Source: a virus. Taken from it: DNA of 64,000 nt. Of this stretch, positions 7,894 to 30,535 are shown piece after piece. Where the stretch lies: IMG/VR virus record IMGVR_UViG_3300020213_000001. The stretch is one strand, 5' to 3'. Below the pieces are notes generated by a model. It worked only from the letters and a program-made list of their open reading frames with translations, did no database searches and was not told the DNA's origin. How positions within the stretch are numbered: the first letter of the stretch is position 1; each line of letters starts with the position of its first letter. The translations under genes were made by a program, and so were the position numbers.

Positions 7894-9636
7894 TTACTTT
7901 TTACCTACACTTTCAATACTTCTGTTGAAATCATTATTATCATAGGTATCCTGCCTCTCTAGTTGGTTATCCCTGGGATAGGCTACGATACCACCCAAAG
8001 TACCCATTACAGACGAAATACTAACGGCGTTGATTAGTGCCTGCTTTACTGCTTCTGTAGCATCAAAAACATCTGTTTCCTTGATTTTATCATATTGGTT
8101 ATTTTCAATGTCATAAACCAATTTAGGGTCGTCAATCAATGTCTGCAGTACTTTCTTAATCTCATCTCCATTGTGGCCTGAGTTATCCAAAAGCCTATAG
8201 ATGGGAGAAAACAGGCTTGGTACTATTACTTCTTTAATGATAGAGCTATCTTCTTTCTGAAGTTCTAGAGCAAGATTGATTAAAACCCTACCTCCACCCG
8301 GTAAACACCCGCTTTTAATAGTAGCCCTAACGGCGCAAACAGCATCTTCAGCCCTGTCAGCCTTCTCTTTAAGCTCTCCATCACTAGATCCATAAACCTT
8401 AAGCTGTGCAATTCCAGAGGTTAGAATACCAAGACTCTCTTCTAGTAGAGATTTTTCTAGCTTACTTTCAGACTGTTCAATTCTAGCCTTAAGTTCATCA
8501 GCCCTAACCTCTACATTAGTTGAGTCTGGATTACCTACAATTGTAGTCCTGAAGCGATAGATGTCAATCTTTTCAGCGCCAGAGCCTAGGTCTTCTATTT
8601 TAAGTTCCGAAAGAGGATTTTGCATATCGAAAATCTTAGCACCCGTAAACGCCGAAACATCCATTAGAAAATTTAACTCTGAGTTAATCAAGGCGTTGAT
8701 TGGAACACGAACTGGAACTGCTTTAACTGCAGATTCGGCATTAGAGAAGTTAAAGGTTAGAAAGTTAAGAACATTTTCTGTAAAGGCATGGGCGAAAATA
8801 ACAACGTTTCCGTTTTCAAGTTGTTTGTCATTGAACTTATAACCAACAAACCTAAGAGCATCTACAATTTGACTAGGATCTGACAATCGCCCATCAAACA
8901 ACACATAGTGGGGTTTTTCTAGAGAACAACGTTGATAGCCCTGATCGTTTATGAAGGAGGCGTGGAATTTACCACAAGACTCCTCATAACCACGGTTTAC
9001 TGGAAACCCTTCGACCAGAGAGGTTTCATATTTATCAGACATACCCGATAGCTCTTGAATTGTAACGTGTGATGATCCAGAAAAACCAGTGATTTCAAAG
9101 GCTTTCATAACTGCCTCTGACATAAGGGTGTCTCCGTTTGCAGATACCCTAGCAACCTTTTCCAGCAAGTCTTGATTTTTAACGCCTACTTTGATAGAAG
9201 ATTTTTCAATAAATGGTAGCATCTTATCATTTAAGAGCCTGGTGATGGTTCTAGCCACTTTCTGTGGGCTATTTTTGGGATATTTTTTGCAGTAAGCAAA
9301 TAGGTTTTGGATAAAGCTGCTTAGCAGGATAGAACAAGTGGTAGTTCCATCTCCAGCCTCTCCAGCTACTTTGATTGCAGAGCCCATTAGTTGATTAAGT
9401 ATAAGATGCTCATAGGCATCAAAAGCGCCTAATGATTTGAAAACTGTCATCCCGTCCTTAGTGTTAGAACTGGGAATATTGGGTAGATCACTTTCAATAA
9501 GTACACACTTGCCGCCAGGACCTAGTGTAGATCCTACAATTTCGCTAACTCTTTTTGTAACCCTCAAAATCAAGCTTTCTAAGAATTCCGGGTCTGAAGA
9601 GAATATTTTAGGTGAAGTTTTTACTTTACGGGTCAT
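7894..9636 (-). CDS. groEL: Phage GroEL-like chaperonin
   Basis: STLGPGG, TKDGMTV, AGDGTTT, EDAVCAVRA, LPGGG chaperonin motifs; 580 aa; no GGM tail. Confidence 0.9.
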   Translation of the reverse strand: MTRKVKTSPKIFSSDPEFLESLILRVTKRVSEIVGSTLGPGGKCVLIESDLPNIPSSNTKDGMTVFKSLGAFDAYEHLILNQLMGSAIKVAGEAGDGTTTCSILLSSFIQNLFAYCKKYPKNSPQKVARTITRLLNDKMLPFIEKSSIKVGVKNQDLLEKVARVSANGDTLMSEAVMKAFEITGFSGSSHVTIQELSGMSDKYETSLVEGFPVNRGYEESCGKFHASFINDQGYQRCSLEKPHYVLFDGRLSDPSQIVDALRFVGYKFNDKQLENGNVVIFAHAFTENVLNFLTFNFSNAESAVKAVPVRVPINALINSELNFLMDVSAFTGAKIFDMQNPLSELKIEDLGSGAEKIDIYRFRTTIVGNPDSTNVEVRADELKARIEQSESKLEKSLLEESLGILTSGIAQLKVYGSSDGELKEKADRAEDAVCAVRATIKSGCLPGGGRVLINLALELQKEDSSIIKEVIVPSLFSPIYRLLDNSGHNGDEIKKVLQTLIDDPKLVYDIENNQYDKIKETDVFDATEAVKQALINAVSISSVMGTLGGIVAYPRDNQLERQDTYDNNDFNRSIESVGKK

Positions 9637-11679: not shown

Positions 11680-13056
11680 CTAGAGTTGACCGTTGATGTT
11701 CTCAAAGATCACGTTCTTGCGGGGCTGCTTGGAGATCAAGCACTTGAAAGAAAAGTGACACTCGGGGAGTGACAAATCGTTCATAGGAAGCTTGATTTTC
11801 TGATAAGGAGCAAGCTGAGCAAAGCTACAGGTTTCAGACTGTAGTAGTACTGCAGTAACAGAGCCGGGGCTACGGTTACCCAAGTCGGTAAATACGGTAG
11901 TACCAGCGCCAGAATCCTTAACGCGGCCGATGAACTTAGAAGAAGCTGAGTTACCGCCAGATTCAGAACGATAAACGTTATAAAGAGCAGCACCAGAAAC
12001 CTGGGTAATGGTCAAAACACCAGCATCGCCAGCAGCTACGGCAACACTGTAGTCAGCACTCTTTGGGCCTTCGCCACGAATGTTTTCAGCAGTAACGTAG
12101 TAGTTATAAGTACCAGCAGCAAGGATGGAGGAAGCGTTAACTGGCGAAGTAGGAGTGGCAGAGGCAGCAGCCAAAGCGTTCGAAGCTTCATCGGGCTGGG
12201 TCTTGCCAGCTAGGAAGCGTGAGGAATCCAGAGTAACGACACCGTTAGAAGTCCACTGGGTGCGTAGATTTGCACCAGTAGCTTCTTGAGCAGAACCAGC
12301 AAGATTGATACGCTCTTTAGCGTGGGCAATCTTGTTGTACTGAGAAAGACTGATAGGATCGGTCATCAACTTGTCGGCATCGCCGTGTTGCATGGCAGAC
12401 TTAACAGCTCCGTCTTCAACATAAGACTGAGTAAGAACACCGTTAACACCGAGAGTAACCGACTGATTGGAGCCGTAGGCTGCAAACATAGCGTCTTGGG
12501 TGGTGGCGATGGAGTCAGACTCGCGGATTTGAGCGAAAACACCACGCATACCGGGCATTTCGGCCTGAAGAGCGGGATTTCCATCAAAAACACCAGCGTT
12601 TGAATAGTCATCTTGTCCACGGAAAGAATCGAATTCCATGTCAGATGCTAGGGAGATAGCTGCATCGCGCTCAGAACGGTCTTCAGCAGAAACACCGTCA
12701 AAGGTAGCTACCATGTTAGCAGCTAGGCCAACACGACGATATTGTGCGTAGAATGCCATGGGCACACCAACACGGGCATACTTAGAAGTTTGCTCTTCGC
12801 CAATTCCGTTTTGGAATTGAGCACTCCTACGCATTTTGCCGTAGGAAAGTTGGCGATTGAATTGCACCAACATAGTCTTAGCATCTTCAGTCTTCAAAAG
12901 TTTTTGAAGCTTAATGTGCTTGTCGCTGATACAGAGGTTCTCCATAACAGGAGAGAGATTCTCAATCTGTAGTGCAGAATGTTGAGTCAAGGAAGTAGGA
13001 GCGGAATCATAACCGCCAGCTTCCAAGGCCTTTACTAGATCGTTAATTGCTTGCAT
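11680..13056 (-). CDS. Major capsid protein with Ig/FN3-like insertion
   Basis: 458 aa; N-terminal LVKA...ALQIENL resembles SPO1/Twort-type capsids; YYVTAEN...YNVYRS...FTD insertion; follows the scaffold gene and precedes a strong terminator. Confidence 0.8.
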   Translation of the reverse strand: MQAINDLVKALEAGGYDSAPTSLTQHSALQIENLSPVMENLCISDKHIKLQKLLKTEDAKTMLVQFNRQLSYGKMRRSAQFQNGIGEEQTSKYARVGVPMAFYAQYRRVGLAANMVATFDGVSAEDRSERDAAISLASDMEFDSFRGQDDYSNAGVFDGNPALQAEMPGMRGVFAQIRESDSIATTQDAMFAAYGSNQSVTLGVNGVLTQSYVEDGAVKSAMQHGDADKLMTDPISLSQYNKIAHAKERINLAGSAQEATGANLRTQWTSNGVVTLDSSRFLAGKTQPDEASNALAAASATPTSPVNASSILAAGTYNYYVTAENIRGEGPKSADYSVAVAAGDAGVLTITQVSGAALYNVYRSESGGNSASSKFIGRVKDSGAGTTVFTDLGNRSPGSVTAVLLQSETCSFAQLAPYQKIKLPMNDLSLPECHFSFKCLISKQPRKNVIFENINGQL

Positions 13057-13065
13057 TACATCCTC

Positions 13066-13755
13066 CTATAATAGATGTTTAATTTTTTCGACACCGATCT
13101 TACGGTAACAAAATTGGTTAATAAGTTCGTCTTCACCTTTCTTGAGATCACCAGAACGTACTTTTTCAGTAAGTTTCTTGATGATTTGGTCATGAGAAAG
13201 ATTAACTTCCTTTTCGGGAGCGGTTTCGGCTTCAGATTTCTTGATAAAACCAACACCTTCAAGGCTAGTTACTGCTTTACGCTTAGGTGCAGAAATGAAT
13301 TTACCCATTGCTCCAACTAGTTTTTCTACGTTCTTTTTAAGCTCTTCGTTTTCCTTAGAGGAACCTTCAAGTTGGGTCTTGATGGTAGCCAATTCAGACT
13401 TAAGAAGATCGGTCTCTTCTTCTTTTTTGAAAAGTTCAGACTTAAGAAGGACTGATTCACTGGAATCTTCAGACTTTTTAATTTCTGTTTCTTCTTTAAC
13501 GAACAATCCACAAATAGCTTCGTAGTGTGCAGTAACTTCAGACTTGCTCATTGAACTGTACATTTCGTTCATTTCAGCAATGTCTTCTTGATCGTAAGCA
13601 ACCTCTGTCGCTTTCTGTTCTTTTTCGGTAGCGTCAACTTCTTCAGATTTAGCCAGCACTGTTTCTTCTTTCTTTTCAGTTTTAGCCAAATGTGCGTGAA
13701 ATTCTGTTTCCACTTCCGAAATCAATTTCGCCATGTCGCTTTCATTGAATTTCAT
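13066..13755 (-). CDS. Capsid scaffolding protein
   Basis: Glu/Lys coiled coil directly upstream of the capsid gene; repeated [LMI]xKSE motifs. Confidence 0.7.
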   Translation of the reverse strand: MKFNESDMAKLISEVETEFHAHLAKTEKKEETVLAKSEEVDATEKEQKATEVAYDQEDIAEMNEMYSSMSKSEVTAHYEAICGLFVKEETEIKKSEDSSESVLLKSELFKKEEETDLLKSELATIKTQLEGSSKENEELKKNVEKLVGAMGKFISAPKRKAVTSLEGVGFIKKSEAETAPEKEVNLSHDQIIKKLTEKVRSGDLKKGEDELINQFCYRKIGVEKIKHLL

Positions 13756-14187: not shown

Positions 14188-14388
14188 TGTATCCTCCAAA
14201 AATACAAACCAGCCTAACTGCTGGTTTTTAAACAATATAGGGGTAAAGATAGTCATTCTGTATAACTTATCAACGATATCACCTAGTTATTTGCATGTTT
14301 TGTTATAATCTTTTATTTAAAAATAACAACTTAGAAGGTGTATAGCAAAAGGCAATCTTTACATTACGCATTTGTTAACAGGAAAATC

Positions 14389-15612
14389 ATGTCAAAAGAA
14401 AAAAATAAAGCAACATTAATTGACGGAATAGCAAGCTCGGTAGCTCTTGATTCAAGCGGCGAACGTGTTGACCTAGCAGGAATGGACATTAGCACTCTAG
14501 CCGTAACTGGAACTGTAACTTGGGATCATGAGCTTACCAAAACTTCAACCAATGTTGTTGGTAAGATCTTATTTGCTAAAAAAATATTTGAAGAAAAAGA
14601 ATGCTCAAACAGTCGCGAAAAGTATTACTGGAAAAAAGTAGGAATGCCATTTTTGTACCTTATATGCTCTCTTTTTGACAATTTTGGACACTCTGGAGCG
14701 AAAGATATTGTTGCTATGTTGGATTTTGACGAAGAGCTAGACAATGAAAAAGTTCGCCAGACAGTGTTTTTCTCTATTGAAGGCTCTCGTTTGGGTAAAA
14801 ACGTAGGAGAAAAGGTGGCGGCGTGTATAGCCAGAAAGGTTACTATTACCAATTTTCCATGCAATCACACTTGTGTTGCTGAAAAGCTAGTGGTTCCTCC
14901 CAAAGACCTTCCTAAAACATCTTCAAAACAAGCCCAAGAAATCCTGTCTAAATTCACAGCCAGTATGCTTAAAACCGAGCAAATTGCTGTTGAAATCATT
15001 AATTCCGAATACTTAAACTCTATTGGTATCAAAAAAGCCGAACTATCCATGAAAATGGTTACTAGAGTAAAAGAGCCAACCACAAAATCTACAAATCCAC
15101 GTCCAAAGAATGGCGCAATAGCCGGTGATAAATTTCCGTATACAAAACCCAAGCCAAAAACAGGTGCGGACATATACAACAACCCAAATACCTGGAAAAA
15201 CGATCCATATGTAAGCAACATGCGTAAGGCAATCGCTAAAAGCTGTGCTCCCGGTAGCCTTGCAGGTCTGGAGCCCTTATCTAAAGAGAAAATACTAAAA
15301 CACCTAGCCAGTGAGGCGTGGGATAATTTTAGCAAAAAAGAAGAGATTCTTGATTTTCTTATGAGAAAAGAGAAAGAAGTAGAGCTGTGTAATACCTTTG
15401 ACGCCAGGATTTGGTCTGAAGAATTCATGAAAATTAAAGAGAAAAACCCAGGATTAGAGAACGATGAGGGAGCCATGTTGGCGTGGTTTGCCGCTAGCAT
15501 AATGGCTGGGTATGACCATGCTCGTAAGCTTAATAAAAACGAAGCCTTAGCAATCGCTAAAACATATGCCTATTTACAACAACTTAAGCTTGAAAAAAAG
15601 CTATTAGAATGA
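14389..15612 (+). CDS. Prohead maturation protease with long C-terminal extension
   Basis: IDGIAS..LDSSGE, WDH, FSIEG, VTITNFPCN motifs typical of HK97/U35-type prohead proteases; ATG 14389 follows AGGA. Confidence 0.75.
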   Translation: MSKEKNKATLIDGIASSVALDSSGERVDLAGMDISTLAVTGTVTWDHELTKTSTNVVGKILFAKKIFEEKECSNSREKYYWKKVGMPFLYLICSLFDNFGHSGAKDIVAMLDFDEELDNEKVRQTVFFSIEGSRLGKNVGEKVAACIARKVTITNFPCNHTCVAEKLVVPPKDLPKTSSKQAQEILSKFTASMLKTEQIAVEIINSEYLNSIGIKKAELSMKMVTRVKEPTTKSTNPRPKNGAIAGDKFPYTKPKPKTGADIYNNPNTWKNDPYVSNMRKAIAKSCAPGSLAGLEPLSKEKILKHLASEAWDNFSKKEEILDFLMRKEKEVELCNTFDARIWSEEFMKIKEKNPGLENDEGAMLAWFAASIMAGYDHARKLNKNEALAIAKTYAYLQQLKLEKKLLE

Positions 15613-15998
15613 AAAGAGTAGCAATAGCCCTTATTCAGGACTGGAAGCAAGATATTCTCATGGGGCGAAGGTCAGATAATGGCTTGATGTCACAACCTGG
15701 CGGGCATTGCGAAAGAGGTGAATGCCCATATGAGAGCTGTGTTAGAGAGGTTAAGGAAGAGACTGGCCTAGATCCTAAGACCGTAAAGCTAGTCAAGGTT
15801 AAAATGGGCGGCAAAGACGGTAAGGTAATGATCTATCTATTTGAAGTTACAGTAGATCCAGAACAACAAGTTGATACGTCTAACGATCCAGATAAAGAAT
15901 TCAAACACTTAGAGTATGTAGACCCGTCCACAGTTATGGACGAGCTACATGTACCCATTGAATATAACACTCTTCTTCAATACTGGATGGACAATTAA
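15609..15998 (+). CDS. Nudix hydrolase
   Basis: Nudix box GGHCERGECPYESCVREVKEETG. Confidence 0.85.
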   Translation: MKRVAIALIQDWKQDILMGRRSDNGLMSQPGGHCERGECPYESCVREVKEETGLDPKTVKLVKVKMGGKDGKVMIYLFEVTVDPEQQVDTSNDPDKEFKHLEYVDPSTVMDELHVPIEYNTLLQYWMDN

Positions 15999-16266: not shown

Positions 16267-16863
16267 TCAACACGGACTCTTAATTTGATATTTTTTTGCT
16301 ATTAAGTCTATAATTTTATTATGAACCTGAAGCATGTTTTCTTTTCCGTTAATATTGATAGATTCAAAATCCATGTTGAAAGATAGGACGTTGTTGTTAA
16401 ACCTACTCAAGCCAAGTGATGTGGCGCTATTCCTTTCATGATTAAATTCAGTTTTAGTGCCATTAAGCTTATCCCTATCATACAGTCTTTTTTTGCAGAA
16501 TTCCATGTTTAGCGGATTAAGAATTATGTTAGAAATGTTATAGTTAGAGTTTAGTTCCCTGTATATCCTAATTAATTCGTTGTATTTTTTAAACAGTTCG
16601 TCTTGATGTGTGTTGTCTACTATGTCTCGGACTATGTGAGAGGCAATGCTACCCTCACATATTACGATTCCGTCTTTGTGAAGACGAAGTAAAGACTGAA
16701 TATCTAGAATATTAACCATAATGTCTTCACTGTTTGATGAGCTAAAGTTTACCTTAAAGCACTCAATATTGTGAGATTTCAATAGGTTATACAAAAGCCC
16801 AGTTTGACTGGACTTACCCACTCCGCTTATTCCATCTATACAGATTACGTTTAATTGGCCCAT
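16267..16863 (-). CDS. Thymidylate/dNMP kinase-like P-loop protein
   Basis: N-terminal ICIDGISGVGKSSQ; about 200 aa. Confidence 0.65.
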   Translation of the reverse strand: MGQLNVICIDGISGVGKSSQTGLLYNLLKSHNIECFKVNFSSSNSEDIMVNILDIQSLLRLHKDGIVICEGSIASHIVRDIVDNTHQDELFKKYNELIRIYRELNSNYNISNIILNPLNMEFCKKRLYDRDKLNGTKTEFNHERNSATSLGLSRFNNNVLSFNMDFESININGKENMLQVHNKIIDLIAKKYQIKSPC

Positions 16864-16911
16864 GTGTTATACTACCATAAAAGCAATCTTTTACTTAAAA
16901 TAGGGATAAAT

Positions 16912-17358
16912 ATGCGTTTAAATGCTAAAGTCTTAAAAAATGTAATCGATGTAAATCACTTCCAATGGGTAGGACAGGCCTATATTCAAGAAGGAAACTC
17001 CAACGATCTTTACATTCAACTTGTAAACCTGGATTGGTCTATCTCCGAAACAACCTACCAACCAGTGGGGCCCTTTCAGTCAACCTCTTCTGTAAGTACA
17101 CCAAACAGGTACATATCACAGGCTGCAGTTATTTCTGTTTCAGCTTATTTTGATAGCATTGATGATTCTGAACAATTCTCCATTATTGGTAGTCAGCCGT
17201 TTGCGGGTGATAAGTCTATTTGGAAATTCAGCCTGACAAACGTACAGACTCCAAGCACCGGCAATTTGAAAATTACAGTTACAGAAGACTCAGTGTCTAA
17301 AACCTTTATCATCAAACAAGCAATTTCTGTACAAAGCCTAAATCAAGGCGGGTGTTAA
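16912..17358 (+). CDS. Putative structural protein
   Basis: ATG 16912 after AGGGA and a GCAATCTTTT motif; beta-rich. Confidence 0.55.
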   Translation: MRLNAKVLKNVIDVNHFQWVGQAYIQEGNSNDLYIQLVNLDWSISETTYQPVGPFQSTSSVSTPNRYISQAAVISVSAYFDSIDDSEQFSIIGSQPFAGDKSIWKFSLTNVQTPSTGNLKITVTEDSVSKTFIIKQAISVQSLNQGGC

Positions 17359-18180
17359 GTGGCTGATTTTACCGACTCAAAATCAATTATAAACAACGCC
17401 TATCCGGTTCAATCTGTTGAAACCAGCAATCTCCTATCTAGGATAGAGCCTCTACTGACTCCACCTCAGCTCATTAGCCGTTACCTGAAGGGTGTTCCCT
17501 TGCCTGCCTACACAGACGAAGAACTTAAAGACGAAATCATGAGGGCTATCAATAAGATGGAGCTGATGACTAATCTTGTTTTCACTCGCACTCAGTTCCA
17601 GGAAACAATGCCATATGATGATCGCCTTTATAAAAATTCCATTCACACTGTGGTAAATCGCCGTCCTGTTATCAGTGTAGAAGAGCTAGGTTTTATCAAC
17701 GCAGACCAAAATGACCCTCTTTTCTACAAAATCCCGGCTAAATTCATTGCAATGGGATTGGCGCATAGAGGACAGATTAACATAACTCCATATGGAACAT
17801 TTTTCGGTGGAGCAAGTAATAATAATTTCAATGGAAGCTCAGGGTTTGTTGGCTTTTGGCGCTTTTTGGACGCTCCCTGGCATCCGCAGGCGCTTCGCAT
17901 AAAATACACTTCAGGACTTTGTAAAAACGATGGAGATGTACCTGTCGTTATAAATGAAATTATCGGCATGACTGCGGCAATTGATATATTAAGCGCAAGA
18001 CAGAATCTAAACTCCTACACTAGTCAGTCACTCAATCAGGACGGTTTGGGACAAAGTTCCGGTAGCAGTGGTCCCCAAATTTATCAAGCCAGGATTGAAT
18101 TTCTACACACCGAACGTGAACGTATGATTAACAGTATTAAAAACATTTTCTTCCAAAAACGATTTGTTTCTAATTTTTAA
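17359..18180 (+). CDS. Putative head-tail adaptor/neck protein
   Basis: Position; IKYTSG..DVP and SQSLNQDGLGQS patterns typical of myophage adaptors. Confidence 0.55.
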   Translation: MADFTDSKSIINNAYPVQSVETSNLLSRIEPLLTPPQLISRYLKGVPLPAYTDEELKDEIMRAINKMELMTNLVFTRTQFQETMPYDDRLYKNSIHTVVNRRPVISVEELGFINADQNDPLFYKIPAKFIAMGLAHRGQINITPYGTFFGGASNNNFNGSSGFVGFWRFLDAPWHPQALRIKYTSGLCKNDGDVPVVINEIIGMTAAIDILSARQNLNSYTSQSLNQDGLGQSSGSSGPQIYQARIEFLHTERERMINSIKNIFFQKRFVSNF

Positions 18181-18183
18181 TAT

Positions 18184-21100
18184 ATGAGCTATAAAAAAAC
18201 CTTTAAAAAACTTAAGAAAAAAGAAAGCGACCTAAATAAAGGCTCTCTGCAAAGAAAGATGCCCTTTGACCCTAAAACAGACGTATCTTTAGAAGATCAC
18301 GTTAAAACAGAGGGGTGGCAGTGGGGTGGGAAAGACGTTAATCTAGAGAAGTATACATACCCTAGAGAAAACACTCCTCGTATAGATGGCTCAGCACGTA
18401 AGCGTGCTATGCGTAGTCTTCACGGCAAGACAGAAGTTAGGAAACACCCCAAAACAGGCGAAAGAATGTTTCTACTGCATCGCGGACATCATAGCGATGA
18501 AAAAACAGGAAGTAGTGAAAAAAGCTCTTGGACTCCTAACCGTGTTGTAGCTGAAGATTTTGCCAATCAATATCGCGATTTAAAAGGAGAAGAAGAAATA
18601 ATAGAAGGAACCGTCTCTTCTGCCTGGATACCAGAAGGTCAAATTCACCACATTCCTAAACAATTCGGGGCTTCTACTGATATAAACAGCGTGAATCTTT
18701 ACGCAAGTCAAGATAATACCCCTGAACAGTATAAAAAGATATTAAACAGTGCTTCAAATATTAAAAAGCAAGGTTCTTCCAATTATAAAAGAGAGCATGA
18801 GGTTATTGTAAATCCTCATTCATTGATGCACGCAAAAGCAGGAGAATCTAAAACCTCCTTGGTTGATTCTAGGATAAATGAGAGGCAGCGTATTTCTGAA
18901 AATTCACATGAAGAAGGAAGTAAAAGAGCTAACCTTAAGAATTTTAATAAGCAACCGCTTCGACCTGTTGAAAAGTCAGAGATAATTGACTTAATTAAAA
19001 CACCTATCATTGCAGACCAAGATGAAGGGTTTGAGACAAATGTACTCTCTAGCGCACTATCAGACGTAGAAGTAAATGGCAAAAATCCCTCTAACGTAAA
19101 AACATACAAGCTTAAAAAAGACGGTAAATACTATCACAGAATCTCAAGAGGAAGTCAGACCTACCATGTGATCTCCCTACACCCAGACCCTAAGAAGGAA
19201 TACATATCGGTATTAGATGGTCACATAGTCGATCACCCAGAACATGGGGAGGTTTATACCGCAGCATATACAGGAACACATAAGGATCATCAATCTCAAG
19301 GGCTTGGATCTAGATTAAAAAAACTAGCAGCATATCATCATGGTAAAATCATAAGCGACGGCGCAATAAGTGGCTCAGAAGACGGAAGCTGGAAAAAGGT
19401 TTCCAAAGATCCCAACTTTAAAGTTTCTATCGCTCAAACGGCTGATCAGAACTCTCTAGAGGCAGAGTCTAAAGAAGAGTCAGACATGTTCAATAAAAGA
19501 CACGTTATAGAACATAAGTCAGCCGGTGGTAAAATAGCGGCCTCTGAAGCTATGAGTAATGACCTAAATAAAGGTTCTCTGCAAAGAAAGATGCCCTTTG
19601 ATCCACGAAGTGTTCCAGAAAAAGAAAGAAACTCCGTAGAAACCTGGACACAGACAAGAGATGGTAGGGATGAAATCCCAGAGATTTCCGATAAAAATGC
19701 CCTAAAAAGGGGTATACATAAGCTTCACGGCAAGACAGAAGTTAGGAAACACCCCAAAACAGGCGAAAGAATGTTTCTAATGCATCGAGGTGTTGAAGCC
19801 TTTGAGCACGACGATGTTAAAGAAAAAGGTGCTCATGATGCAAATTCATCCTGGAGCCCTAGCTACGACATAGCACATGGTTTTGCTAAGCAACACACCA
19901 GTGCTAACCATGATCGATCCAGAAAACCAGAGGTTTTATCCGCATGGATATCTGAAAATCAAATTCACCACATCCCAAGCAGTATCGGAGAGAAAAAGTC
20001 TGATTCTAGCATAAAAAATTCAAAGTTTAAGGGAGAACACGAGGTTATCGTAAAACCTCACGGGTTGACCTTCTCCAGTCCTATAAAGAGAAATATGTCA
20101 AATGAAGTTGAAGACGTTAGTCTAGACGGCAGAATTAACGAAAGAACACCCAATACTTTTGTTGAATCTAAGAAAAATAAACTAGCAGCAAGTGAAAAAG
20201 AGACGAACGATCTAGCTAAAATGTCTCAACCTACTATAACATTCCCTAAGCTAGGAACAAACTCTAGACCCGACTCAGAAGTGCAAGTAGTTGAAACCCC
20301 TAGACAAAAGAAAATATTTGCAAGAAAATCGGTAATTTCTTATTTTAACGATAAGGGAGGAGGCGCTAAACCTACACCTACATCTACAATCGACAGGGAA
20401 TCTAAAAGAATCGAGAATAGTCTTGGCAAAAGGTACCTGGGTGTTAGTGTAGGATCTAAGACGGCTGCCGTGGGTGGCAAGGCAATGTCTGCTTTTGAAA
20501 AGCCGAGTGGGGATAATTTAGATAAACTAAAAGACCATATGGAAAAAAGAAACAAAGTAGTCAGAGACTATAACGATTCCTATTTGGGCTGGAAAGAAAA
20601 AGAAAAAGAGCTAGCATCTCAAGCCGGTACATCGGACGGTCACGCTGCCTGGTTAAAGCATAGAACATCCAAGCCTGATAGACCTAAGTTACCTAGAAAA
20701 CCCTCAGCTAAAAAGCTGGATAATTCTGAAATCTCTCCTAAAGAACTGGAGTATAGAGGTAAAAGAATAGAGGCAACTAAACAGCATGAAGGGTTACACA
20801 ACACCCTACACACCATCAAGAAGAAATACGGTAAAGATGCGTTTGCTACCGTAATATCTAAAATGGTTTCAAAATTGCCAGAAAATACGTTGGAGGCACT
20901 GAACTCTCACATCAAAGATAAAGGCTATAAGAGCGGCGATTACGAAGAAGTTTTAACTCACGCTAGGGATATATTGACTGATCCTAAAACTAGAGATCAA
21001 TTTAAGTTAAAGAATAAAGATGCTGACAGTCATATAAAAAACATAAAACAAGCCCATAAGAACATGTATCAATATGCTAAAAACCTAACGCCTAAGGATA

Positions 21101-21663
21101 TCGGGCATTCTGAGCAGTCTAACGAAGACTTAAAGATAGCTGCAAAAACAGACATGAATAAGGGCGAAATCGGCAACGCCGTTAAGGGCACTGTAATCGC
21201 ACTAGGTCTTGCTTCTGGCATGGACCAAGTACTTGACAGAAATCAGTATAAAGCGCCAGTTAGACAGCCTACCTCCGTAGTTTCTGAAAAAACAGAGCCG
21301 GAAAAGGCTTATGACAGTGCTAAGGTAGATGCAAACGAAATTATCAGCCGAAACGACAAAAAATGGTTTTTAGGTAAATTCGGTAAAGAACTAAGCACAG
21401 TCGTATATAAGCAGTCTATTAAATCAGACCCAGAATTGAATCAGAAATACGGGTACACAAACAATCTAAGTCCTAGTGCGTTTAAGGAACTTATAAATCA
21501 TAACCCAGAAATCAGACAAGATGTATCTGGAAAACACTATGAGGGGCTTCACCAACAGTTCGGTGGGGATCATGAAAAAATACTAGGTGCCTGGAGAAAC
21601 GGCGTAAAGGCTACAAGGGTTAAGTTTAGCAACACCCAACCTATTGATATTAAAGAAAAATAG
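18184..21663 (+). CDS. Multidomain polyvalent protein: 2x ADP-ribosyltransferase-like, GNAT-like, HExxH metallopeptidase-like, C-terminal lysozyme/SLT-like
   Basis: Two HRG..SSW[TS]..A..FA..EHEVIV (R-S-E) units; QSQGLG acetyl-CoA motif; HEGLH; internal DNA duplication. Confidence 0.65.
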   Translation: MSYKKTFKKLKKKESDLNKGSLQRKMPFDPKTDVSLEDHVKTEGWQWGGKDVNLEKYTYPRENTPRIDGSARKRAMRSLHGKTEVRKHPKTGERMFLLHRGHHSDEKTGSSEKSSWTPNRVVAEDFANQYRDLKGEEEIIEGTVSSAWIPEGQIHHIPKQFGASTDINSVNLYASQDNTPEQYKKILNSASNIKKQGSSNYKREHEVIVNPHSLMHAKAGESKTSLVDSRINERQRISENSHEEGSKRANLKNFNKQPLRPVEKSEIIDLIKTPIIADQDEGFETNVLSSALSDVEVNGKNPSNVKTYKLKKDGKYYHRISRGSQTYHVISLHPDPKKEYISVLDGHIVDHPEHGEVYTAAYTGTHKDHQSQGLGSRLKKLAAYHHGKIISDGAISGSEDGSWKKVSKDPNFKVSIAQTADQNSLEAESKEESDMFNKRHVIEHKSAGGKIAASEAMSNDLNKGSLQRKMPFDPRSVPEKERNSVETWTQTRDGRDEIPEISDKNALKRGIHKLHGKTEVRKHPKTGERMFLMHRGVEAFEHDDVKEKGAHDANSSWSPSYDIAHGFAKQHTSANHDRSRKPEVLSAWISENQIHHIPSSIGEKKSDSSIKNSKFKGEHEVIVKPHGLTFSSPIKRNMSNEVEDVSLDGRINERTPNTFVESKKNKLAASEKETNDLAKMSQPTITFPKLGTNSRPDSEVQVVETPRQKKIFARKSVISYFNDKGGGAKPTPTSTIDRESKRIENSLGKRYLGVSVGSKTAAVGGKAMSAFEKPSGDNLDKLKDHMEKRNKVVRDYNDSYLGWKEKEKELASQAGTSDGHAAWLKHRTSKPDRPKLPRKPSAKKLDNSEISPKELEYRGKRIEATKQHEGLHNTLHTIKKKYGKDAFATVISKMVSKLPENTLEALNSHIKDKGYKSGDYEEVLTHARDILTDPKTRDQFKLKNKDADSHIKNIKQAHKNMYQYAKNLTPKDIGHSEQSNEDLKIAAKTDMNKGEIGNAVKGTVIALGLASGMDQVLDRNQYKAPVRQPTSVVSEKTEPEKAYDSAKVDANEIISRNDKKWFLGKFGKELSTVVYKQSIKSDPELNQKYGYTNNLSPSAFKELINHNPEIRQDVSGKHYEGLHQQFGGDHEKILGAWRNGVKATRVKFSNTQPIDIKEK

Positions 21664-22605: not shown

Positions 22606-22659
22606 ATAATCATTGCAAAAACACCTTTAAAATAGCAATCTTTTAGCTACGAGGTGTGT

Positions 22660-23190
22660 ATGGTTATTCAAGAAAGTGAAATCAAAGAAATCAAAACAAT
22701 AGGTACCCTAAACGGTCAAGACGTAAAGGTAATTATCACTAAGGGTGGTTTCTGTGCTGGATTGGGCCTTAAAAGACCTAACTCACAGCCAGAGGCATTG
22801 GCTGCTGCAGCTCATCCAGGAATCGTAAAATATCAAATTGAAAAAGCTTATGGGAGCGCCTTTAAGGCTGCTCTTTGTAAGTCCGAGTCGCAACAGTCCT
22901 ACGATGTTGAAGACAAAACACACACACTACCCGAAATGGTCAAGAAAGCTGGATTTGAACTTTATGTTTTGAGCAAATCCAATGAAGTAGACTTCATTAT
23001 CAGCAAAAATGGAATAAGCATTGCTAAATATGAAACCTATCTAGCCGATAATCAACTGGTTATCAGTAAATACGAATTTAAAGATTTCATATCTCCCAAT
23101 CGTTTTGTTTCAGATGTACTAGGAAAAACCATTGCAGATAAGGCTAAACAGCTAGGTGCAACGAGCATTACCAATGACCAATCTAGTTGA
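22660..23190 (+). CDS. Hypothetical, probably virion-associated protein
   Basis: ATG after GAGGTG and GCAATCTTTT; internal LCKSE motif. Confidence 0.55.
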   Translation: MVIQESEIKEIKTIGTLNGQDVKVIITKGGFCAGLGLKRPNSQPEALAAAAHPGIVKYQIEKAYGSAFKAALCKSESQQSYDVEDKTHTLPEMVKKAGFELYVLSKSNEVDFIISKNGISIAKYETYLADNQLVISKYEFKDFISPNRFVSDVLGKTIADKAKQLGATSITNDQSS

Positions 23191-23374
23191 GATTACAAAA
23201 ATAATCAATAAAAAGAAAGAAGATGATTTCATAAGGAAATTAGATCTTCAAGCATCTTATGTTGCCCTTGAAATGTGTCTAAAAACTATTGAAATCAATA
23301 GCTTACCAGAGTTGAAAAGTATTAAAGAGTCAATTAAGAAAACCATGAAATTATTGGCTAGTAAGGAAAGATGA
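23174..23374 (+). CDS. Hypothetical protein
   Basis: Short ORF coupled to both neighbours. Confidence 0.45.
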   Translation: MTNLVEITKIINKKKEDDFIRKLDLQASYVALEMCLKTIEINSLPELKSIKESIKKTMKLLASKER

Positions 23375-24288
23375 GTAACGTACCTGCCAAGGGCAATCAA
23401 CTAATAACACTTCCCGTGTCTCCATTTGAATTGGAGCAGATTAGCTTTAACACCGAAAAGATGAATCAACTCATTACGTCTCACGGTGTTACGTTTCAAC
23501 ACTATAGGGCTATCCCATCTCCAATTGGTCTAAAGGACCGTGGCGATTACAGACGCAGCGAAACCCTAGACACTATATCAGAAAACGGCTTTATTTATAA
23601 AAAGTGTGGTATTTTCAATGGAGTGATGCTCTCCAACAACAAAAGCAAGCCAGATATTGAGGGTGGAACTTTCGACGCTTCTCACGCTAGAGTTACCCTG
23701 CCCATGTACTACAGAGAGGACTCTCCAGAACACGCTAATGAGAGAATTCACCTAGCTCCAGGCGATAGACTCTTTTTCGCCGAAGTAGCCCAGGAAGAGC
23801 AGGACGTGGTTAACTATCAAAAGGTTAACTACAACTCATTTGGAGACGATTTCCTTCAGTTTCCAGCTACTTGCGTTGAATTTATAATAGACTCCCTAGG
23901 GCGTGAATATAAGTACGGATTTGATTTTACGACATCTAAGGACGGAAATATACGCTGGATTGACGGGGCTAAAAATCCAGGGATAGATCCTGACACCGGC
24001 AAGGGCCGTGTTTATGGGATTAGATACAGATATGCCGCTTATTACTACATAACGTCAATTGTAAATGAAGTCAGGATAGGGAAGACCACAGAGGGTGGAA
24101 TAAGAAAAGACACACGTTTTCCATACCAGATTACTATTCAGAGGGAATACTGTTTCCATAATAGGGTTAACGGAGACTCTGTAAGTTCCAGTAAAGAGAC
24201 AAAAACAGAGAGAACTGTAGCCAAACCAGAAGAGAACATTGACCCTGTCAGGAACGTAATAAAAGTGAACGTAAGCAGTTTCGAATAA
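23371..24288 (+). CDS. Putative neck/head-closure protein
   Basis: Size and position in the structural operon; ENGFIY and YGIRY patterns. Confidence 0.5.
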   Translation: MSNVPAKGNQLITLPVSPFELEQISFNTEKMNQLITSHGVTFQHYRAIPSPIGLKDRGDYRRSETLDTISENGFIYKKCGIFNGVMLSNNKSKPDIEGGTFDASHARVTLPMYYREDSPEHANERIHLAPGDRLFFAEVAQEEQDVVNYQKVNYNSFGDDFLQFPATCVEFIIDSLGREYKYGFDFTTSKDGNIRWIDGAKNPGIDPDTGKGRVYGIRYRYAAYYYITSIVNEVRIGKTTEGGIRKDTRFPYQITIQREYCFHNRVNGDSVSSSKETKTERTVAKPEENIDPVRNVIKVNVSSFE

Positions 24289-25764: not shown

Positions 25765-27387
25765 ATGGGTTTTGTTTATTTAAATTTGAACGGCGACGAA
25801 ATTGGCGAAAACATTGGCAATGCAGTAGCCTCTAATGATGAAGAAGGCCTTGGCCAAATGAGCAACACTCTTAAAGATGCCCACCGGGCTTTTGAAGAGT
25901 GGATAGAATCTGTAGGAGGAATGGTTATCGTTTCCAGCGGTGACGAGTCACTTTGTAAGATTCCTGCAGAAGCCTATAATGAAGAAACTATTGAAGGTCT
26001 TCGTCAACAATACGAGCAAATGACAGGACACACAGCTACCGTTGGCGTTGGCAATAGCATGTCTGAGGCAGCCAAAGCCCTTATCTACGGTAAAATGAAC
26101 GAAAAGAATCAGGTTGTTCAATACGATCCTATGATTGAGGATTATATCAATTCAGACGAGGAAGCTTCTGAACAAGTAGAGGATATCGTTTCCGCTGAAG
26201 GACAGGCCGGAGGACAGGCTGAAGGACAGGCTGAAGGACAGGCCGGAGGCTATCCCGTTGATGAAGAGTTTCAAAACAACAATATTGCTCAAAATTCACC
26301 AGACGAGTCAACACAGAGTCAAATGCCAGATGAAAGTCTAATGGATGAAGGGCAGATGTCAGAAGAAGACGCATCTGTAAGCCCTGAAGATAAGCTAAAA
26401 CAATTTGTAGCTGCCGATGTTGATGGCGACGGAGATATCGACGACGTTGCTGAAGTTAGTGATCAAGACGGAGATGGCGATATCGATCAAGAAGACGCCT
26501 CATCTTTGGTTAGCGATATGATTCACGCCAACATGGGTGGAGATGAAGATCAGGAAATGGAAGGTCAGGAAATGGAAGGCCAGGAGATGGGCGAAGAGGA
26601 ACTGGACGAAGAGGAAATTTCTCAAGCAATTCAAGAATTAAGTCAGGAAGATTTGGCTGAAGGTCATAGCTTTGAAGATGAAGAGCAGTCTGAAGAAGGC
26701 ATGGACGATCAGCTAAAACAAGATATCATGAACTCTCTTTCTGCCTTTAAAGATAATCAACAGATGCTAGAGCAGGCTAAGGAGCAAAACCCAAGTCTTT
26801 ATAGTGCTACCATTACGATGCTTCGCGCTATGATTGAAATGGCAAAGCGCCTTAGTGTAAACCCTGCACCTGAACTTGAAGAAGGCATGGAAGAAGATTT
26901 GGATCAAATGGGAGATGAAGGGCAGATGCCTGAGCAGGAAATGTCCGGCGAAGAAGAAATGCTTATGGAAGACGAAGATTCTGCTTATGACAAACCCTTC
27001 TCAGGTGAGGAAGGCACGGAAGAAAGCACGGAAGAAGGCATGGAAGAAGAGTCTGAAGAGCCCACTGAAGAGATGGAAGAAGAAAGCGAAGAACCTAAGA
27101 AAGAAAATAAAAAGCCAGCCTTCATGAAAAATGAAGAAATGAATAAGCAAGAGAAGGGTGTAAATACAAATCTTGTATCGCAAGACGCTATGAAAAATAA
27201 GGGAGAGTCTGACGCTGGTAGAAACGTCAGAAGAGCAGCAAAATTCAAAAAAATCGGTCTACATGATGTAGCTAAAGAACAAAAAAATGCAGCAAAAAGA
27301 TTTGGTAAGTGGGCCTTAGATGATTTAAAATCTCAAAAAAAGCCAAACCTTCCTAAGAGTGAGGAAGCGTCTTCCTCAAAAAAGTAA
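25765..27387 (+). CDS. mCpol-like (Cas10/GGDEF-type palm) domain fused to a long acidic region with EF-hand-like loops
   Basis: YLNLNGDEIG...GGMVIVSSGDE...TATVGVG..MSEA.KAL.YGK..KNQV; DVDGDGDID and DQDGDGDID loops. Confidence 0.65.
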   Translation: MGFVYLNLNGDEIGENIGNAVASNDEEGLGQMSNTLKDAHRAFEEWIESVGGMVIVSSGDESLCKIPAEAYNEETIEGLRQQYEQMTGHTATVGVGNSMSEAAKALIYGKMNEKNQVVQYDPMIEDYINSDEEASEQVEDIVSAEGQAGGQAEGQAEGQAGGYPVDEEFQNNNIAQNSPDESTQSQMPDESLMDEGQMSEEDASVSPEDKLKQFVAADVDGDGDIDDVAEVSDQDGDGDIDQEDASSLVSDMIHANMGGDEDQEMEGQEMEGQEMGEEELDEEEISQAIQELSQEDLAEGHSFEDEEQSEEGMDDQLKQDIMNSLSAFKDNQQMLEQAKEQNPSLYSATITMLRAMIEMAKRLSVNPAPELEEGMEEDLDQMGDEGQMPEQEMSGEEEMLMEDEDSAYDKPFSGEEGTEESTEEGMEEESEEPTEEMEEESEEPKKENKKPAFMKNEEMNKQEKGVNTNLVSQDAMKNKGESDAGRNVRRAAKFKKIGLHDVAKEQKNAAKRFGKWALDDLKSQKKPNLPKSEEASSSKK

Positions 27388-29749: not shown

Positions 29750-30535
29750 ATGTCTGAAAAATTTTACACCGCTAAAGAGATGGCCGTTGCTGCTCTTAAA
29801 AAGTATCAAGAACTATGTGAAAACAAAGACTTAAGTAAGGCCAACACTTCTCACGAAATTGAAGGCGGCGAAGAGCCTAACATTGAAGATGCTGAGTGTC
29901 CTGAACAGCTAGCCGCTGAAGGTACCGTTGGCATCAGTTCCAAGCCCAAGAAGAAAAACCCTGACGGTAGTGATTCTGAAGAAGACGAGGTAAGCGAAGG
30001 CGAATCTCAAGCTATGGAAGAAAGTGCTAAGGAAGAAGTCGGCGAACACGAAGACGAAATGCACGAAGAAAAAGAAAAGTCTGAAGAGTCTGAAAAGTCT
30101 GAAGAGCCTAAGAAAGAAAATAAAAAGCCAGCCTTCATGAAAAGTGAAGCAGCAAGCGTCAAGCCACTTAAGAAGTTCATTGAAAAGATGGAAATGAAGA
30201 AAGCCATTGTTGACGAAGGTAAGAGCGACAGTGATAAGGTGAAATCACGTAGTGAAAGAGGGAACCATAGTATCTCCAAAAAGATTTATGGTCAAGATAT
30301 TGGAATAAATAAACCCATTTCAGAAAAGGGAGGGGTTTCTCACGTTGGGCATTCGCTAAAAGTTGGTAAAAAACTTTTACCAGGAAGCTCTAAAGACATT
30401 GAACACGACGCAAAAAAGTACCATAAAGGTGTTATTTCTGAACAAAAAGGAATGAAGAAACCCAGCCTTCCTAAGTCTGAAGAAATGAATAAGTCCAGTA
30501 AAGTTGAACAATTCCTTGGTGTTGAGAAAAAATAA
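29750..30535 (+). CDS. Acidic/basic putative internal head protein
   Basis: Shares EEPKKENKKPAFMK and KKPxLPKSEE with the 25765-27387 protein. Confidence 0.55.
   Translation: MSEKFYTAKEMAVAALKKYQELCENKDLSKANTSHEIEGGEEPNIEDAECPEQLAAEGTVGISSKPKKKNPDGSDSEEDEVSEGESQAMEESAKEEVGEHEDEMHEEKEKSEESEKSEEPKKENKKPAFMKSEAASVKPLKKFIEKMEMKKAIVDEGKSDSDKVKSRSERGNHSISKKIYGQDIGINKPISEKGGVSHVGHSLKVGKKLLPGSSKDIEHDAKKYHKGVISEQKGMKKPSLPKSEEMNKSSKVEQFLGVEKK

Follow-up and report, generated by a model that had tools for sequence, protein, structure and literature searches.

The polyprotein gene and its modules

This study concerns a single large gene of IMG/VR virus record IMGVR_UViG_3300020213_000001, of which one stretch of 64,000 nucleotides (hereafter the window) was analysed. 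The gene, open reading frame (ORF) P0001, encodes five modules joined by short, recurring peptides and lies within a cluster of virion genes. We consider it probable that the product is a head-loaded effector polyprotein of the polyvalent kind which is cut by the prohead protease of the phage; the cutting and the packaging are the predicted parts of this reading. The start codon falls 4 bases past the stop of the preceding gene, and in the protein collection the ORF is carried on a 154,932-bp contig, that of an uncultured phage of ∼155 kb. Its parts are as follows (aa, amino acids).

18184–21663, plus strand: polyprotein ORF P0001, a single uninterrupted frame of 1159 codons (1159 aa, 130 kDa)
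18184–18240, plus strand: N-terminal leader, aa 1–19, basic, ending in DLNK; candidate capsid-targeting peptide or pro-peptide
18241–18987, plus strand: module 1, predicted ADP-ribosyltransferase, aa 20–268, with R100 (in HRG), S115, S146 and E204-x-E206; 46% identical to module 3
18967–18999, plus strand: junction 1/2, VEKSE, two residues, then DLIK; a scaffold-type K-S-E motif replaces LAASE
19000–19548, plus strand: module 2, GNAT-family acetyltransferase-like, aa 273–455, with motif A as QSQGLG
19531–19572, plus strand: junction 2/3, K-IAASE, five residues, then DLNK
19573–20196, plus strand: module 3, predicted ADP-ribosyltransferase, aa 464–671, with R535 (in HRG), S556, S586 and E618-x-E620
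20179–20220, plus strand: junction 3/4, K-LAASE, five residues, then DLAK
20221–21150, plus strand: module 4, zincin-like, aa 680–989, with HEGLH at 868–872 and E921/E922; helical-hairpin insert at approximately aa 775–845
21133–21162, plus strand: junction 4/5, K-IAAKT then DMNK, a degenerate LAASE
21163–21660, plus strand: module 5, aa 994–1159, beginning with a hydrophobic helix and carrying a conserved AW-x-NG close to its C-terminus

An initial annotation had divided the protein at DLNKG (18229 and 19561), DLIKT (18988), DLAKM (20209) and DMNKG (21151), with K[IL]AA ahead of three of the junctions (KIAA at 19531 and 21133, KLAA at 20179). All of these coordinates proved correct, as did those of HRG (18478 and 19783), SSW (18523 and 19846) and EHE (18793 and 20035) in modules 1 and 3, and of QSQGLG (19291), HEGLH (20785) and ILGAWRNG (21580). 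The duplication it described between modules 1 and 3, 57 identical nucleotides at 18418–18474 and 19723–19779, was likewise found, and a repeat finder recovered it independently (78 nucleotides at 92% and 44 nucleotides at 95%).

The polyprotein as a whole matched nothing in Pfam, PHROGs or PDB sequences, nor anything among 50,697 phage records searched with megablast and tblastn. A HMMER search of 1.84 billion representatives returned 420 relatives at E ≤ 1e-3, with 98 of these reaching E ≤ 1e-30, and modules were mapped on the best 150 of the 420. In these 150 proteins, of ∼200 to 2,900 residues, the five modules turn up in any order and in any number of copies, and single-module genes are also present. 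The modules are real, mobile and independent units, with boundaries that are established here. Relatives also carry additional domains, namely a strong GNAT (2e-24), S-adenosylmethionine lyase, NUDIX, VTC, PI3/4-kinase-like, DUF5661, DUF3293, LPD1 and mCpol. These partners suggest an effector role, S-adenosylmethionine lyase being a known type of counter-defence protein and NUDIX, mCpol and LPD1 being associated with biological conflict. Searches of the literature found no description of this linker or of the module family.

Junction peptides

The residues preceding module starts take the form [D/E]-L-x-K and are alike across the module families. At module 3-type starts (n = 131), position −3 is L in 84%, position −1 is K in 95% and position 0 is G in 100%; at module 4 starts (n = 75) the corresponding values are L 72%, K 88% and M 88%. 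Module 2 starts (n = 14) have L at −4 in 71% and K at −2 in 79%, in that register. The 153 family proteins contain a further element, [LMIV]AA[SNAT]E, in 125 places; shuffled sequences gave 2.8 on average and 8 at most. In 101 cases K stands directly ahead of it, and K-[LM]-A-A-[SN]-E is often found upstream of L-x-K, at a distance of 0–1 or 5 residues. This LAASE element and the K-S-E element appear to be interchangeable, since junction 1/2 has VEKSE where the other junctions have LAASE.

The same peptides also mark the ends of proteins. In several relatives the protein stops right at ...DLKK or DMKK, or within a few residues past LAASE, and the stand-alone modules that were examined keep a short leader ending in Phi-x-K (Phi, hydrophobic residue). 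Leaders are of two types. One has the form MYKK-x-L-K-x-L-KKSE, which heads many relatives and to which the leader in the window, MSYKKTFKKLKKKES, belongs; the other has the form M-x-x-K-H-Y-R-R...E-L...Phi-x-K. Both leader families (P0004, P0009, P0022, P0042, P0049, P0077 and others) are candidate capsid-targeting peptides.

The junction motif in scaffold and capsid proteins

The lysine motif of the junctions recurs in the head-maturation genes of the same phage, for which the relevant features are given here.

11680–13056, minus strand: major capsid protein (phrog_752), 47% identical to the capsid protein of Myxococcus phage Mx1; its leader ends in NDLVK, followed by ALEAGG
13066–13755, minus strand: scaffold-like acidic coiled-coil ORF, 229 aa, with 8 copies of Phi-x-K-[STAGN]-E
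14338–15612, plus strand: prohead protease (phrog_1028), candidate processing enzyme, with an N-terminal protease domain of ∼190 aa at 14338–14949, whose presumed active-site Ser lies in SIEGS, and a C-terminal tail

The 8 copies of Phi-x-K-[STAGN]-E in the scaffold-like ORF compare with 0.45 expected, an enrichment of ∼18-fold that was reached in none of 300 shuffles. The remaining copies in the window lie mainly in genes of the head cluster (the capsid gene, the tail of the protease, the genes at 22654, 24797 and 29750, and the mCpol gene), and only two are found in the ∼40 ORFs of the 30–64 kb region. In 14 relatives, the scaffold-like ORF upstream of the capsid gene has 6–11 copies, against ∼0.4 expected, at positions that are not identical. 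The capsid N-terminus carries the motif as well: in 14 relatives (L028–L041) a leader varying in both length and sequence is followed by an invariant L-[MV]-K and then ALE[AV]G. Because a variable leader with an invariant boundary is the pattern expected of a removed pro-peptide, L-x-K/ALEAG is likely the cut site of a short pro-peptide in the capsid protein, as predicted from these alignments. In Mx1, the closest cultured phage, the scaffold-like gene has LAKSE and LAKAE, and motifs of the LKKSE type are found in a 1479-aa ‘NUDIX hydrolase’. The polyprotein therefore shares a short motif with the scaffold and with the capsid maturation sites, as would be expected of a substrate of the prohead protease. 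The initial annotation had read the junction motifs as probable maturation-protease sites, and this is supported by their crowding in the scaffold and their place at the capsid N-terminus, in this phage and in 14 relatives.

The proteins encoded at 25765–27387 and 29750–30535 have near-identical C-terminal segments, ..KPAFMK[NS]E.. and ..KP[NS]LPKSEE.., with K-S-E motifs like those of the scaffold.

The N-terminal 190 residues of the protease are 36% identical to the start of the 1239-aa ‘putative prohead protease’ of Mx1, and the protease domain was present in 5 of 5 relatives checked. Among relatives (L043–L047; L027:7285-11004) the ORF ranges from 392 to 1239 aa, with the N-terminal domain followed by very variable C-terminal extensions; given this variability, the protease itself may carry cargo. 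Cleavage of the HK97 capsid protein takes place on the C-terminal side of a Lys, and the site of herpesvirus assemblin is hydrophobic-x-Ala/Ser. By analogy, L-x-K/G and L-A-A/S-E could be sites of one enzyme, with P3 hydrophobic, P1 either Lys or Ala, and P1' small.

Modules 1 and 3 as ADP-ribosyltransferases

The initial annotation had taken modules 1 and 3 for ADP-ribosyltransferases (ARTs), and both the conserved residues and the structural matches bear this out. An alignment of 50 ART-module sequences has an invariant L, H, R (of HRG), two Ser and Glu-x-Glu; in the numbering of the model described below, R85, S106, S136, E168 and E170 are invariant in all 50. Predicted structures were made for modules 3 and 4. 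The AlphaFold (AF2) model of module 3 (predicted local distance difference test score, pLDDT, of 81; predicted template modelling score, pTM, of 0.73) places the Arg at the end of strand 79–87, the first Ser on strand 105–108 and the ExE just before strand 171–173. Foldseek returned nothing significant for this model against the PDB. With VIA-wide, a structure search independent of Foldseek that covered 48,161 chains, nearly all of the top 50 matches were ARTs, with Z of 4–6.1 and up to 127 aligned residues; they include Vis (Z 6.0 over 127 residues), CPILE-a, ExoS, VIP2, C3, Tre1, Tpt1/KptA, the diphtheria and pertussis toxins and PARPs. Modules 1 and 3 gave only chance matches in a PDB profile search and no match to Pfam ART models.

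Despite the modest individual Z values, a match list this uniform, combined with R-S-ExE residues that never vary, gives a firm ART assignment: modules 1 and 3 are paralogous ARTs of the R-S-E clade, with activity predicted from the alignment and the model. Their likeness to established members of this clade (Vis, iota/CPILE-a, C3, ExoS and VIP2) lies in the predicted fold and in the ordered Arg, Ser and Glu-x-Glu. They differ in that identity is only 10–16%, Z is only 5–6 and these modules match no Pfam ART model.

Codon identity between module 1 (18241–18987) and module 3 (19573–20196) is patchy, with runs of 7 and of 19 consecutive identical codons in a pair that is 46% identical in amino acid sequence. 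This suggests gene conversion between modules within the gene.

Modules 2, 4 and 5

Module 2 had been proposed to be a GNAT, and at the level of the family this is supported. Individually, 10 of 12 members of the module 2 family match Pfam GNAT PF00583 (best 2.4e-07), and the top matches of the family profile against the PDB are all GNATs, at 6e-4 and below. Module 2 belongs to the GNAT family, and acetyltransferase activity is predicted.

The proposal that module 4 is a metallopeptidase is supported only weakly. What speaks for it is an invariant HExxH and Glu in a fitting predicted topology: H197, E198, H201 and E251 (model numbering) are invariant in 38 sequences, with the Glu 50 residues past HExxH, and the model (pLDDT 90.7) has three short strands, a long helical hairpin, an HExxH helix (181–211) and a Glu helix (249–261). 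This matches the zincin-like metallopeptidase (MPTase) core topology described for polyvalent proteins (Iyer, Burroughs, Anand, de Souza & Aravind, 2017; PMC5512222). Foldseek found nothing significant for the model in the PDB, and the Foldseek and VIA-wide lists were both swamped by the coiled-coil hairpin insert; the sole zincin match was a weak one to PPEP-1 (Z 4.0 over 123 aa). A single match in BFVD was to an uncharacterised phage protein, and the ESM-Atlas gave a sub-0.9 lead to LPD23 at an 18% share. Pfam, including its MPTase models, gave no match for module 4, and a PDB profile search returned chance matches only. On the conserved motif and the model, a zincin-like nature of module 4 is probable. 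The hairpin insert (window ∼20500–20720) sits between the small sheet and the HExxH helix, and a short form of the module, lacking the middle third with the hairpin, is found in many relatives.

Elsewhere module 5 is found on its own in a gene and also at the C-terminus of a longer chain. The earlier description of it as SLT-like (lytic transglycosylase, PF01464) was rejected, there being no Pfam match even at E 1, an hhalign probability below 1% against the neighbouring true SLT, and no invariant catalytic Glu. Pfam scans of module 5 variants with ES/GLM-like motifs gave no support for an SLT either, and an ESM-Atlas lead from module 5 to SLT clusters, at 0.85, was within the range reached by shuffled sequences. 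A PDB profile search with module 5 returned chance matches only.

Genomic setting

The window holds phage genes for a large terminase, a portal, a Cpn60-type chaperonin, the major capsid protein and the head-maturation protease, as well as a NUDIX protein, an SLT transglycosylase and an mCpol-domain protein. Capsid, protease, portal and terminase genes, together with matches to virion-structural PHROGs, surround the polyprotein gene and give it a late/virion neighbourhood. The kinship to Mx1 seen in the capsid protein is accompanied by a distant similarity of that protein to SPO1-like phages.

The position of the polyprotein gene is conserved. The order of genes is 16855, 17359, the polyprotein, the SLT gene, 22654, 23371, 24318, 24797, the mCpol gene and 27722, and Mx1 and a dozen related contigs keep the flanks of this slot. 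Across relatives the slot contains from 1 to 8 modules, at times split over 2 or 3 genes; in Mx1 it is occupied by the 1479-aa ‘NUDIX hydrolase’. NUDIX and mCpol are encoded by separate genes of the polyprotein's cluster in the window, are fused with GNAT and module 4 in one relative (P0008) and, in the case of NUDIX, are located inside the polyprotein of the slot in Mx1. The initial annotation's picture of a modular polyvalent protein within a virion gene cluster is supported by this arrangement.

Three genes of the window may be described further. The gene for the Cpn60/TCP-1 family chaperonin (7894–9636, minus strand) adjoins the terminase gene, a small NUDIX gene (15609–15998, plus strand) overlaps the stop of the protease gene, and the product of the mCpol-domain gene (25765–27387, plus strand) has a very acidic tail.

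Proposed mechanism and alternatives

Head loading, cutting by the head protease and injection are probable because the joints of the polyprotein carry the lysine motif that crowds the scaffold. In the mechanism that we propose, the polyprotein would be made late, together with the virion proteins, and its short basic N-terminal leader and/or its K-LAASE tails would bring it into the prohead core beside the scaffold. There the serine prohead protease would cut it at the junctions, after DLNK19, DLIK272, DLNK463, DLAK679 and DMNK993, with further cuts probable inside VEKSE and LAASE, while the same enzyme removed the N-terminal leader of the capsid protein and chopped the scaffold at Phi-x-K/small sites. 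The predicted products would be two R-S-ExE ADP-ribosyltransferases, a GNAT acetyltransferase, a zincin-like protein and module 5. These pieces would stay in the capsid, enter the host with the DNA and modify host targets early in infection.

Several points weigh against this reading. For this phage and for Mx1 alike, we infer from sequence that the protein is packaged, cut at particular bonds and injected, and that it then acts on host targets. The scissile bond could lie after K, after the A of LAA/SE or after E, and LAASE, having no lysine, may not be a cut site. The GNAT copy of the window is weak when taken alone (E 0.07), though motif A, Q/R-x-x-G-x-G/A, is kept in it. The genes flanking the polyprotein (16855–18180 and 22654–24288) are without a firm head assignment, one of them matching a ‘tail fiber’ PHROG. 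Finally, the 5' ends of modules are conserved at the nucleotide level, as would also fit mere recombination joints.

This last point belongs to an alternative in which the protein acts uncleaved, as a large multi-domain polyvalent protein resembling the virion RNA polymerase of N4, and the joints are flexible linkers or sites of homologous recombination for shuffling. N4 virion RNA polymerase is packaged unprocessed (Iyer et al., 2017; PMC5512222), and both the near-identical nucleotide stretches at the 5' ends of modules 1 and 3 (44 nucleotides, 95%) and the patchy codon identity between them, indicating gene conversion, would fit such joints. Recombination would leave unexplained why the motif is enriched ∼18-fold in an unrelated scaffold and stands at the capsid N-terminus in 14 phages, why single-module genes have leaders ending in Phi-x-K and why proteins terminate exactly at the motif, and we regard uncleaved action as unlikely. 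The motif's tie to head-maturation substrates also counts against a tail or baseplate location, or release at lysis, with the protein acting on the cell envelope at entry rather than from inside the head. Since a flanking gene, the one upstream, matches the ‘tail fiber’ PHROG, some weight has to be given to this, and a true SLT transglycosylase downstream and the hydrophobic helix at the start of module 5 point the same way; but the ART and GNAT modules require the cytoplasmic cofactors NAD+ and acetyl-CoA, and the chance that the protein works in this manner seems slim.

If the chain is cut, the cutter might be its own module 4. The invariance of HExxH and Glu in 38 sequences, the start of module 4 exactly after L-x-K with a conserved MSRPRITFP peptide, and the published proposal of zincin autoprocessing in polyvalent proteins (PMC5512222) all favour autoprocessing. 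Yet module 4 was absent at E ≤ 1e-3 from five complete relatives (CheckV 100%) in which the junctions are kept, while the same search detected it in 3 of 3 positive controls, and module 4 was rejected as a general processing enzyme on these grounds. A zincin would also leave the motif in the scaffold and capsid proteins unexplained, and the zincin fold itself is weakly confirmed. Autoprocessing is accordingly very improbable in our estimation, and the prohead protease is the better candidate because module 4 is absent from those five junction-keeping relatives.

Comparison with known systems

Iyer et al. (2017; PMC5512222) described polyvalent proteins in phages and in conjugative elements. 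The polyprotein belongs to this class, with at least two unrelated effector or enzymatic domains in one phage polypeptide, mosaic architectures and a late/virion neighbourhood. The likeness extends to the occurrence of many unrelated effector domains, an ART beside a GNAT, a zincin-like domain, the virion context, the shuffling and the presence in a relative of LPD1, a Pfam domain defined on polyvalent proteins. Two differences stand out. The modules match no Pfam polyvalent-protein model, and their joints share a conserved peptide with the scaffold and the capsid protein, which points to the prohead protease, whereas in PMC5512222 autoprocessing by an MPTase is proposed and the word ‘linker’ does not appear.

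Giant phages offer a second comparison, as ejection or inner-body proteins of phiKZ, 201phi2-1 and SPN3US are cut by the prohead protease at several A/S/G-x-E sites (PMC5694885, PMC10052503). As is proposed for the polyprotein, their head-internal proteins are processed at multiple motif sites, and the motif is found in scaffold-like proteins as well; processing of such proteins at several sites by the prohead protease is also known from T4. Their proteins differ in being mostly non-enzymatic or uncharacterised, with no shuffled array of enzymes, and the cut motif and the lineage differ.

The internal proteins of T4 have a capsid-targeting leader that is removed by the prohead protease gp21; they are encoded by separate genes and cut once, after Glu. 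The polyprotein resembles T4 Alt and the internal proteins in having a head-associated type of enzyme, an ART, and a short leader closed by a protease-type motif in which P3 is hydrophobic. It differs in having five modules in one chain, Lys (or Ala) in place of Glu and a protease of another lineage, and no sequence similarity of the polyprotein to T4 Alt was found. Head-packaged ARTs of myoviruses, with leaders and protease-type motifs of this sort (PMC9503650), form a picture into which the polyprotein fits.

Meaning for Mx1-like phages

Polyvalent proteins and head-packaged ARTs have already been described, and for the processing of such chains a zincin within the chain has been proposed. 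What is new relative to published work is a sharp junction peptide that is independent of module family, its identity with the motif of the scaffold and capsid proteins, and large ART and zincin-like families that are without Pfam models. The family offers an alternative, at the level of sequence, to zincin autoprocessing, in the form of a junction peptide that is common to scaffold and capsid sites and is kept in phages without the zincin.

A broader idea, which we put forward tentatively, is that Mx1-like phages have a portable grammar for loading and cutting, consisting of a basic leader, [D/E]-L-x-K/small joints and K-LAASE tails. Any enzyme module recombined into the fixed slot of the virion operon would then travel into the prohead and be set free by the head protease, with L-A-A/S-E serving the same enzyme as an assemblin-type site beside the Lys-type sites. 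If so, the slot would be a plug-in arsenal of effectors, its content readable directly from sequence. Were head loading and cutting confirmed, injected phage proteins and their cut sites could be predicted by a rule, a large and uncharacterised ART family and a zincin-like one would be defined as effectors acting early, and a natural tag for bringing cargo into phage heads would suggest itself.

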